From NCBI RefSeq assembly GCF_013167455.1, contig NZ_CP038332.1: 64,000 bases of DNA, one strand, 5' to 3'. Made by a program: the position numbers. Shown here in pieces: positions 61,454 to 64,000 of this stretch. Each line of letters begins with the position of its first letter. The stretch's first letter is position 1. Source of the DNA: Escherichia coli O157:H7 (lineage in GTDB: Bacteria > Pseudomonadota > Gammaproteobacteria > Enterobacterales > Enterobacteriaceae).

Positions 61454-64000
61454 TCATTTCAATAAACCGGGCGACCTCAGCCATCCCTTCCTGATTTTCC
61501 GCTTTCCAGCGTTCGGCACGCAGACGACGGGCTTCATTCTGCATGGTTGTGCTTACCAGACCGGAGATATTGACATCATATGCCTTGAGCAACTGATAGC
61601 TGTCGCTGTCAACTGTCACTGTAATACGCTGCTTCATAGCACACCTCTTTTTGACATACTTCGGGTATACATATCAGTATATATTCTTATGCCGCAAAAA
61701 TCAGCGCGCAAATACGCATACTATTATCTGGCTTTTAGTAAGCCTTATGTATTTTACCTTTCGTTATGTTAACCAATAAAAATTAAAATCTGCCTTATAA
61801 AAACAAAGCGTAATTACCGCATTCCCGTTTCGTATGGATCCGACTTTATTTGAATAAACGACTTTCCGGAAGTGTACCACCTGAGAAAATCATCATATCG
61901 CTGTTTTCCGCCCCTGCGCGGCGCATCACAGTCCAGAGATACAACACAACATATAGTGCCATGGGCAACTGAATGAGGCACTGCATGCTGTGCTGACGGG
62001 ATGTAACGCTGTGCGGAGGGAGAGGAAGATCCGTAACCACCAGAAACCGGATCTGACCAGGAAAAGAGAAAGAGTGTATGTAAGTTCTGTACTGTATGTA
62101 TGAATTGTATTGTATGTATTGTGTATTTTTCATACCGGGCATACGATGGCGCCATTCCCTGAGAAACCGGAGCCAGACCATGACATCCCTCTCCCCGGAC
62201 ACCGTCCGCCGCATTGAAGACGCCGCCGCCGCCCTGATCGCCGCCGGCACCCCGAACCCGACCAACGAGCAGGTCCGTCAGCACCTCGGCGGCGGCTCCC
62301 TGTCCCACATCTCCCCGGTGATGCGCGCGTTCCGCGCCCGCCAGCGCGAGCAGGCCACGCCCCTGCCGCCGGAGCTGGCGCAGCTGCTGACCGGCCAGCT
62401 GGGGCTGCTGTGGCAGGCGGCCGTGAAACAGGCTGAAGCCGGGGCCCTGGCGGCGCGCGAGCAGGCCGACGACGACATTGCCCGGGCCGACAAGGAGCGG
62501 GATGAGGCGCTGGCGAACGTGGCCGCGCTGGAAAGCGAGCTGGCGGTGCTGCGCGAGGTGGTGGCCGAACGTGACCGCCTGCTGCAGGAGGTACGCGAGC
62601 TACGCGCGGAGGCGCTGCCGCTGCGCGAGCAGGTGGCCCGCCTGACCGCCACCGGCGAACACCTGGCGGCGCAGCTGCAGGACACGAAGGCGGAGCTGAA
62701 GGAAGCCCGGGAGGACGGCCGCCAGCTTCAGACCGAACTGCTGGCTCTGGCCCGCCAGGACGGGAAGGTGAAGAAATGAGACAGGAAAGAGTATTACGTA
62801 TAAAGGCATTTCGACGGGCACTGGAGCTTGGTGGCGGTGAACGGGCTGACGGGTGTCGTCATTTTCCCCGCTGGAAAACGGAACTGAGGAATTTCCCGCA
62901 CAGCAGCTGCGATTTAGCCAGCAATACTCTGGCGTACTACCTCAAAGAACGAGAGAGATGCCATCCGTGCATCATTTTTATGGAAGGGAACGCTGGCTTT
63001 CATGAAGCGGAAAACTCAACAGTTCACGGGCATGTCATCGTATTGCTGGACGGAGAGTACATCGATTTGACGCTGGATCAATTCGACGAATATCCGGACT
63101 ACATTCCTTACGAACCTGTCGAATCTGACGGGCAGATTGGTAAGCTGTTGCGTAATATCATGAAGCATGAGGACCCGGTAAAAACCCGCCAGATTGATCT
63201 CGATGGTGGCGAAGAGCTGTATGCCTGGTTACGCGATACCGCCGACGAAGTGCTGGCAGCAGATCCGGAATGGCAGGCCCGGGAACGGTCGATAGAAGAA
63301 GCAAGGGAAGCCGCTATTACGGTGTTCCCGTTTCTGTCTGACGTGCAAAAAACTGAGTGCGAACAGGGCCCGGACAGTCAGGAGGCTGCCAGATGAAGAT
63401 TTATCATTACACTGACCTGAACGGCCTGAAGGGCATCATCGAATCAGGCTCACTGTGGGCGACGCACTTTTCCTTTCTCAATGACAGTAATGAGCTGACT
63501 CACGGCATGAACTGCCTTGAGAATGCCCTGCAGTACCTGAGGGACGACTTTAACCCGAAAACCCTTAAGTTCATCGAACAGGCACCCTTATAAGCGGTTG
63601 TGTATGCTGTTTCCCTGGAATGATTTATCCACATATCCGGAGGCTCGATCCAGTAAACAGATCCATGAATGATCAACAAAGGATCCATTAAAGATCCCCA
63701 TACCGCTGCAAACCTTGTCACTCATGGGCCGGGACCACGATCACATAAGCAGTGGCATGTTACTGATAAACTGTAACATGCTAATGATAAGCTGTATTCA
63801 GTAATCCATATACTGAAGTAAGTTAATGACATAAACTATGGTCAGTACGCCAGACTCAGCTGTTAAATACAGGCTGCAGGTTTTTCTTCAGTCAGTTAGC
63901 GGGGCTCTGACACACGATTTGCTGTTTATTCTTTTACTGTCCACAGGCAGGAGGCTTTCTGGAAAACGAAAATTCAGACATCAAAAAACTGTTCGGCGAG

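Follow-up and report, generated by a model that had tools for sequence, protein, structure and literature searches.

A 5' remnant of a DUF2971-family gene at a 2,842-bp deletion junction beside the RepFIB origin of plasmid pO157

An open reading frame (ORF) of 66 codons next to the replication origin of the Escherichia coli O157:H7 plasmid raises the question of why it stops so early, and of where the rest of the gene has gone. The first-pass annotation had assigned this ORF to the DUF2971 family, and had proposed that plausible coding sequence continues in the next frame, in which case the gene would be a pseudogene created by a frameshift. The window analyzed here (the whole stretch of 64,000 nucleotides) represents plasmid pO157 of E. 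coli O157:H7, with positions 62776-64000 being 100% identical to the Sakai pO157 (complement strand, NC_002128.1 27543-26319) and identical as well to hundreds of other pO157 records. In RefSeq the genes of this region appear in the order resolvase, ccdB/ccdA (minus strand), kfrA-like gene, 206-aa gene, the 66-aa ECp025.2n, and RepFIB. The features discussed below are collected in Table 1.

The 66-codon ORF was found where it had been described, starting with an ATG and preceded by an AGGAGG 8 nt 5' of that codon. Its N-terminus (IYHYT...LWAT...FLNDSNE) is typical of the family, and the family assignment was borne out by tblastn: residues 1-64 are 100% identical to those of 262-aa DUF2971 proteins on plasmids of E. 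coli, Salmonella and Citrobacter, and 40-53% identical to plasmid-borne DUF2971 proteins of Klebsiella, Leptospira and Yersinia. The expectation that family members should be several-fold longer also proved right, with the database homologs that cover 100% of the intact protein measuring about 260-330 aa, or 4-5 times the length of the stub. On Pfam the stub gives no PF11185 match at E<=1 and does not reach the gathering score of 22 bits, and shows a sub-threshold similarity between its residues 3-26 and the opening ~20 positions of the Tox-ART-HYD1 and DarT models; since no Pfam call rises above threshold, the profile models cannot file the stub. It lies wholly upstream of the Pfam-defined domain, which occupies residues 90-188 of the intact protein. 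Following codon 64, the last native codon, the old frame reads CCC TTA TAA, that is, Pro-Leu-stop.

The remnant is held in an operon whose first gene is kfrA-like. The three plus-strand genes (kfrA-like, 206-aa and 66-codon) are joined by ATGA overlaps: the kfrA-like stop overlaps the start of the 206-aa ORF, and the TGA of the latter overlaps the ATG of the 66-codon ORF (63393-63396). The 206-aa ORF is kept together with its operon in many IncF plasmids, and had no Pfam or PADLOC match above threshold (YunG alone, E 0.013). A papain-like protein with a dermonecrotic-toxin fold has been described in a kfrA-type operon (PMC12522546), and probably corresponds to this ORF. An Rfam search of 61600-64000 returned nothing meaningful (CrcZ alone, 17 bits where the gathering score is 95). 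Scanning for promoters and terminators yielded no more predictions than shuffled sequence does, and revealed no terminator separating the stub from the origin.

Table 1. Features of the DUF2971-RepFIB locus. Positions are those of the window unless another plasmid is named.
Feature	Position	Strand	Basis or remarks
kfrA-like gene (KfrA_N DNA-binding protein)	62096..62779	+	Pfam KfrA_N E 1.3e-19; annotated KfrAs in NC_002128.1
206-aa ORF, no assigned family	62776..63396	+	ORF list; translationally coupled on both sides
Truncated DUF2971-family ORF, ECp025.2n	63393..63593	+	64 native codons, then Pro-Leu-stop from RepFIB-flank DNA
Segment shared with intact DUF2971 genes (residues 1-64 of 262)	63393..63584	+	tblastn, 100% over 64 aa, E 2e-46
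Deletion junction, one C common to both parental sides (1-bp microhomology)	63585..63585		pO157/pSFO157 alignment
+1 frame quoted in the first-pass annotation; not coding, RepFIB origin-flank DNA	63586..63672	+	three-frame translation, tblastn
Perfect DnaA box TTATCCACA	63625..63633	+	encodes L-S-T of the quoted NDLSTYPE
Five GATC (Dam) sites: 63647, 63660, 63671, 63682, 63693	63647..63696		11-13 bp spacing
Upstream RepFIB iterons (B/C/D block)	about 63745..63848		inverted-repeat matches, consensus scan
RepFIB rep start, CTG codon, running off the window	63959..64000	+	in frame with annotated CDS at 64001
Abi gene, then 313-aa ORF, in pRHB18-C12_2 (L002)	4825-5565, 5724-6665 (-)		
Abi gene, then 313-aa ORF, in pSFO157 (L008)	4325-5065, 5227-6165 (-)		

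We examined the proposed continuation by aligning three full-length family members to 63301-64000 with tblastn (six frames, word size 2, E up to 100). No frame in 63586..64000 matched residues 65-262, the best alignments there spanning 7-29 residues at chance level (E at least 0.4). Two close homologs aligned over residues 1-64 alone, their other alignments in 63301-64000 being 2-40 residues long with E again at least 0.4, and a distant one (L004) extended to residue 76 in the same frame, through the stop. The +1 frame, quoted earlier as RLCMLFPWNDLSTYPE..., translates in full as PYKRLCMLFPWNDLSTYPEARSSKQIHE* and has 28 open codons, beginning at 63586 and closed by a TGA at 63670-63672, and all three frames are stop-rich through 63900. 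What had been taken for plausible coding sequence thus amounts to 28 open codons on non-coding origin DNA. The remainder of the gene, which a frameshift pseudogene would carry downstream in another frame, is not encoded there, elsewhere in the 64-kb window or on the other 28.7 kb of the plasmid.

The comparison with orthologous loci in related plasmids, also suggested by the first-pass annotation, settled the mechanism. The best comparator was the large plasmid that sorbitol-fermenting O157 carries, pSFO157 (NC_009602.1), whose flanks match those of pO157 gene for gene (integrase-ccdBA-kfrA-orf206 on the left, RepFIB-recombinase-papX-ehxD on the right). On the left, pO157 (L001) 2118-5810 corresponds to pSFO157 (L008) 1-3693 with 1 mismatch in 3,693 bp, and on the right, 5810-9509 corresponds to 6536-10235 with 1 mismatch in 3,700 bp. 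The two plasmids are therefore 99.97% identical on both flanks, and 2,842 bp present between these flanks in pSFO157 are missing from pO157. Codons 65-262 of an uninterrupted DUF2971 ORF (198 codons) lie in the missing block, together with an Abi gene, a 313-aa ORF convergent to these, and some 370 bp of the RepFIB flank; the DUF2971, Abi and 313-aa ORFs are all intact in pSFO157. The same arrangement is seen in pRHB18-C12_2 (CP057674.1; L002), where 61001-63585 of the window aligns to 1588-4193 and 63586-64000 aligns to 7035-7450, and where ccdBA-kfrA-orf206 is followed by an intact 262-aa DUF2971 gene (QML41135.1), the Abi gene and the 313-aa ORF. The intact IncF gene, in pRHB18-C12_2 as in its pSFO157 orthologue, shares with pO157 residues 1-64, the upstream ccdBA/kfrA/orf206 and the downstream RepFIB, whereas pO157 is without residues 65-262, including the Pfam domain (90-188), Y94 and E183/E185. 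Against both plasmids pO157 thus shows the pattern of a deletion-truncated pseudogene, with collinear flanks and the 3' block of the gene missing. The first-pass annotation had named two outcomes that together would speak against a frameshift pseudogene: the lack of any downstream frame aligning with the family, which is what we observed, and the same short ORF at orthologous loci, where we found the intact long gene instead.

The junction is resolved to a single base. The pSFO157 boundaries read GAACAGGCA[C]TGACGC ... CCCTGAAG[C]CCTTATAAGCGG, and the pO157 junction reads GAACAGGCA[C]CCTTATAAGCGG, where the bracketed C is position 63585 and can be assigned to either side (junction-spanning sequence GAACAGGCACCCTTATAAGCGG). 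Neither IS ends nor direct repeats were found at either deletion boundary. An imperfect similarity near the junction, between ACAGGCAC and GCAGGTAC, is offset by 9 bp and cannot account for it. A microhomology of 1 bp does not point to any particular enzyme or process, and the deletion may have had a multi-step history. The deleted DNA was not found elsewhere on pO157, and a published comparison of pO157 with pSFO157 (PMC7175801) is silent on the DUF2971-RepFIB locus. In another E. coli plasmid, CP077326.1 (L003 2643-4780), it is the 5' end of the DUF2971 gene that is cut: the part homologous to the window begins at 63418, right after an IS91-family transposase, with an IS3 element downstream. 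This truncation is an independent disruption of the DUF2971 locus.

These observations point to the 66-codon ORF being the 5' stub of a DUF2971 gene that was truncated, in the pO157 lineage, by one 2,842-bp deletion through illegitimate recombination, a reading to which we assign a probability of about 0.96. Such a deletion would have taken residues 65-262 of DUF2971 together with the Abi gene, the 313-aa ORF and about 370 bp of the RepFIB flank, and would have joined codon 64 to sequence lying some 40 bp to the left of the RepFIB DnaA box, so that the reading frame would meet a stop after two foreign codons (Pro-Leu-TAA). On grounds of parsimony and of the completeness of the long form, the event would be a loss in pO157 and not a gain elsewhere, because the long form is complete in a widespread family, with the N-terminal 64 residues being part of a conserved fold; because the last codons and the stop of the stub are origin-flank DNA; because the flanks are nearly identical to those of pSFO157; and because the flank homology of other RepFIB plasmids runs further left. 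This homology elsewhere reaches 93-338 bp beyond the pO157 boundary (to L002 positions 6697, 6729, 6811, 6834 and 6942, as compared to 7035 for pO157); of the RepFIB plasmids sampled, pO157 has the origin flank that is most cut back on the left. It is reasonable to suppose that selection for an intact origin set the limit of the deletion on the right. We infer that the stub is a non-functional relic. It may still be transcribed and translated, since the Shine-Dalgarno sequence and the ATGA coupling to the upstream gene have been kept.

The distribution of the junction among plasmid records bears on several other explanations. A 300-bp query spanning the junction, counted at a coverage of at least 80%, was covered in 337 plasmid records, with about 2,570 more matching the RepFIB half only; the intact 3.2-kb segment was covered to at least 80% in 68 plasmid records, and the full-length protein to at least 80% in 192 records, with pO157-type records matching residues 1-64 only, in one place per record. 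A sequencing or assembly artefact at the junction is excluded, since the same junction recurs at 100% identity in the 337 independently sequenced records, among them Sakai, EDL933 and TW14359. We also see next to no chance for an indel near 63590 after which the DUF2971 gene would go on in the +1 frame. That frame is indeed open for 28 codons past the junction, and a minority variant, w0044, enters exactly this frame because one further nucleotide is missing from the CCC run near 63554, yielding a 92-aa ORF. Yet the w0044 extension runs through the junction and likewise ends at 63672, reading origin DNA; the full-length homologs found no counterpart of residues 65-262 there; the DNA right of the junction has homologs in about 2,900 plasmid records, where it forms the RepFIB origin flank; and the missing codons sit in the block that pSFO157 has kept. 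Of the earlier proposal, then, the truncated remnant stands, but its cause was a deletion and not a frameshift.

The short ORF could instead be the ancestral, genuine gene, with the long genes having arisen by insertion of a 2.8-kb cassette. The right boundary of the segment does fall where the left ends of RepFIB modules vary between plasmids, as is typical of mosaic IncF plasmids. An insertion would, however, need to deliver precisely what completes the gene in frame, and the N-terminal 64 residues are integral to the conserved fold (β1-α-β2, with the invariant H5, N30 and E34) and are contiguous with the remainder in 43 diverse homologs from chromosomes and plasmids; moreover, no repeats or mobile-element ends mark the boundaries, and the last two codons and stop of the stub come from the origin flank. 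We regard this origin of the long form as very unlikely. Much the same small chance attaches to the idea that the 66-aa product is a functional small protein under selection, such as a regulator or decoy that evolved from the N-terminus of an ADP-ribosyltransferase (ART). Its strong Shine-Dalgarno sequence, its ATGA coupling and its identity in more than 330 plasmid records would fit such a role, but pO157 is nearly clonal, so that 100% conservation in hundreds of its records is uninformative and no evidence of selection. In addition, the stub is without motifs II and III and 8 of the 10 β-strands (see below), and a free-standing 64-66-aa form occurs in no independent lineage, other short database entries being contig-end fragments or different truncations. 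The frameshifted w0044 variant, moreover, was seen in two independent sources (one NCBI assembly and one Logan assembly of an SRA run, with sequencing error possible in both), and fits a relic under relaxed or no constraint.

To the right of the junction, the 415 bp up to the end of the window constitute the upstream half of the RepFIB replicon, as identified by the DnaA box, the iterons and the CTG-started rep found in 63586-64000. They share the architecture published for the RepFIB basic replicon (P307, F and pO157; PMC11983097). The FIB map of pO157 in that study shows origin iterons upstream and control iterons downstream, together with a DnaA site and a CTG start, with the replicon being functional and the CTG start shown experimentally (PMC11983097). 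The upstream iterons belong, in inverted orientation, to the same family as those downstream of rep, and the cluster of GATC sites at 63647..63696 is the densest in the 64-kb window. The RefSeq RepFIB CDS begins at 64001, 42 nt after the CTG at 63959; with the CTG as the start of rep, the annotated RepFIB protein is 14 residues short. On the minus strand, pO157p25 (63934-64000; L001 6159-6488) is annotated as a hypothetical gene antisense to the rep leader and 5' end, and is probably a spurious call. Perfect DnaA boxes occur 5 times in the window (19344, 27580, 32076, 55101 and 63625), compared to 0.54 expected from shuffles.

A GC-rich element of ~55 nt (GCTCGCCGCAG...GCGAGGAAGC) occurs in the window at 57800-57852 (+) and 59887-59947 (-), inverted and flanking an IS. 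A third copy lies directly left of the right breakpoint in pRHB18-C12_2 (L002 6945-7000) and, equivalently, in pSFO157 (L008 ~6445-6500), and was lost in pO157. In many RepFIB plasmids the homology starts exactly at this element (L002 6942). We take it to resemble the n'-type primosome-assembly (ssi) sequence beside the ColE1/pBR322 origin; when the element was folded as single-stranded DNA, its energies were no better than those of shuffles.

The sequence lost from the gene includes the whole of the Pfam-defined domain. The intact 262-aa protein matches PF11185 with 43.7 bits (cutoff 22) over residues 90-188, none of which pO157 encodes. Across 43 aligned family members, 17 positions are invariant, of which the stub retains 3 (H5, N30 and E34), having lost F81, L88, S89, W91, R92, Y94, Y127, K176, F180, E183, E185, R187, P210 and P229. 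The losses include catalytic motifs II (Y94) and III (ExE, E183/E185). A search of PDB sequences with a profile of the 43 members gave chance-level matches only (E at least 0.16), and a fold search was therefore used. The AlphaFold model of the intact protein, a confident one (pLDDT 92.8, pTM 0.87), places residue 64 in a helix (55-75), past 2 of the 10 β-strands, leaving the stub without the other 8. The complete catalytic core of the H-Y-E clade of ARTs (motif I H, motif II Y, motif III ExE, split β-sheet) is thus not present in the stub, which, judging from the lost motifs and the 8 modelled strands, cannot be catalytically active.

According to the model, the intact gene is predicted to encode a DarT-like protein of ADP-ribosyltransferase fold. 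This agrees with a bioinformatic survey that places DUF2971 as an H-Y-E-clade ART similar to DarT, and with Aristaios, a DUF2971 protein that gives abortive-infection-type phage resistance in Lactococcus (PMC11381338). In sequence, the identity to DarT (the ssDNA thymidine ADP-ribosyltransferase of the DarTG toxin-antitoxin) is only 11-14%. Unlike DarTG, the gene has no macrodomain (DarG) partner, its neighbour being AbiJ/Abi_C-like instead, and the pO157 stub keeps β1-β2 only. With Aristaios, a single-gene system of lactococcal plasmids, it shares the Pfam family, the plasmid location and the predicted ART fold; on the other hand host and sequence differ, the enterobacterial gene is known by likeness of family and fold, and in pO157 it is destroyed. 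By analogy, the likeness to Aristaios suggests that the intact IncF gene may serve in phage defence, and the intact enterobacterial gene is plausibly a candidate defence or toxin gene. PADLOC returned for the intact DUF2971 protein a weak match only (PDC-S31, E 0.0046).

The genes next to it point in a similar direction. The lost Abi gene encodes a 246-aa Abi_C / AbiJ_NTD5 (HEPN-like) protein with a PADLOC match to AbiJ (E 3e-9). The convergent 313-aa ORF is annotated as DUF3800 in other records, had no Pfam match here, and, like orf206, retrieved nothing with PADLOC. Together, the ART-fold, AbiJ-like and 313-aa genes look like a small defence island beside the RepFIB origin of IncF plasmids.

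To a specialist the DUF2971 remnant is unsurprising, being an ordinary gene remnant at a mosaic IncF junction. It is improbable that the deletion went beyond neutral decay, by changing RepFIB control or the phage susceptibility of non-sorbitol-fermenting O157:H7 relative to carriers of pSFO157. Such a reading starts from what the event took away, namely three genes that form a candidate phage-defence cluster (encoding a DarT-like DUF2971 protein, an AbiJ-like HEPN protein and the DUF3800-annotated ORF), as well as terminator-side genes and the GC-rich ssi-like element beside the origin; as a result of the deletion, the kfrA operon would now read directly into the DnaA box and iterons.

For the annotation of this plasmid, ECp025.2n and its counterparts in over 330 pO157 records, now labelled "hypothetical protein", are better described as the 5' remnant of a DUF2971 gene, and the DNA 3' of the stub as RepFIB origin and not as coding sequence. 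The 2,842-bp deletion provides a lineage marker that separates pO157 from pSFO157, and indicates that a candidate ART/Abi defence cluster, still present in related IncF plasmids, has disappeared from the virulence plasmid of O157:H7.
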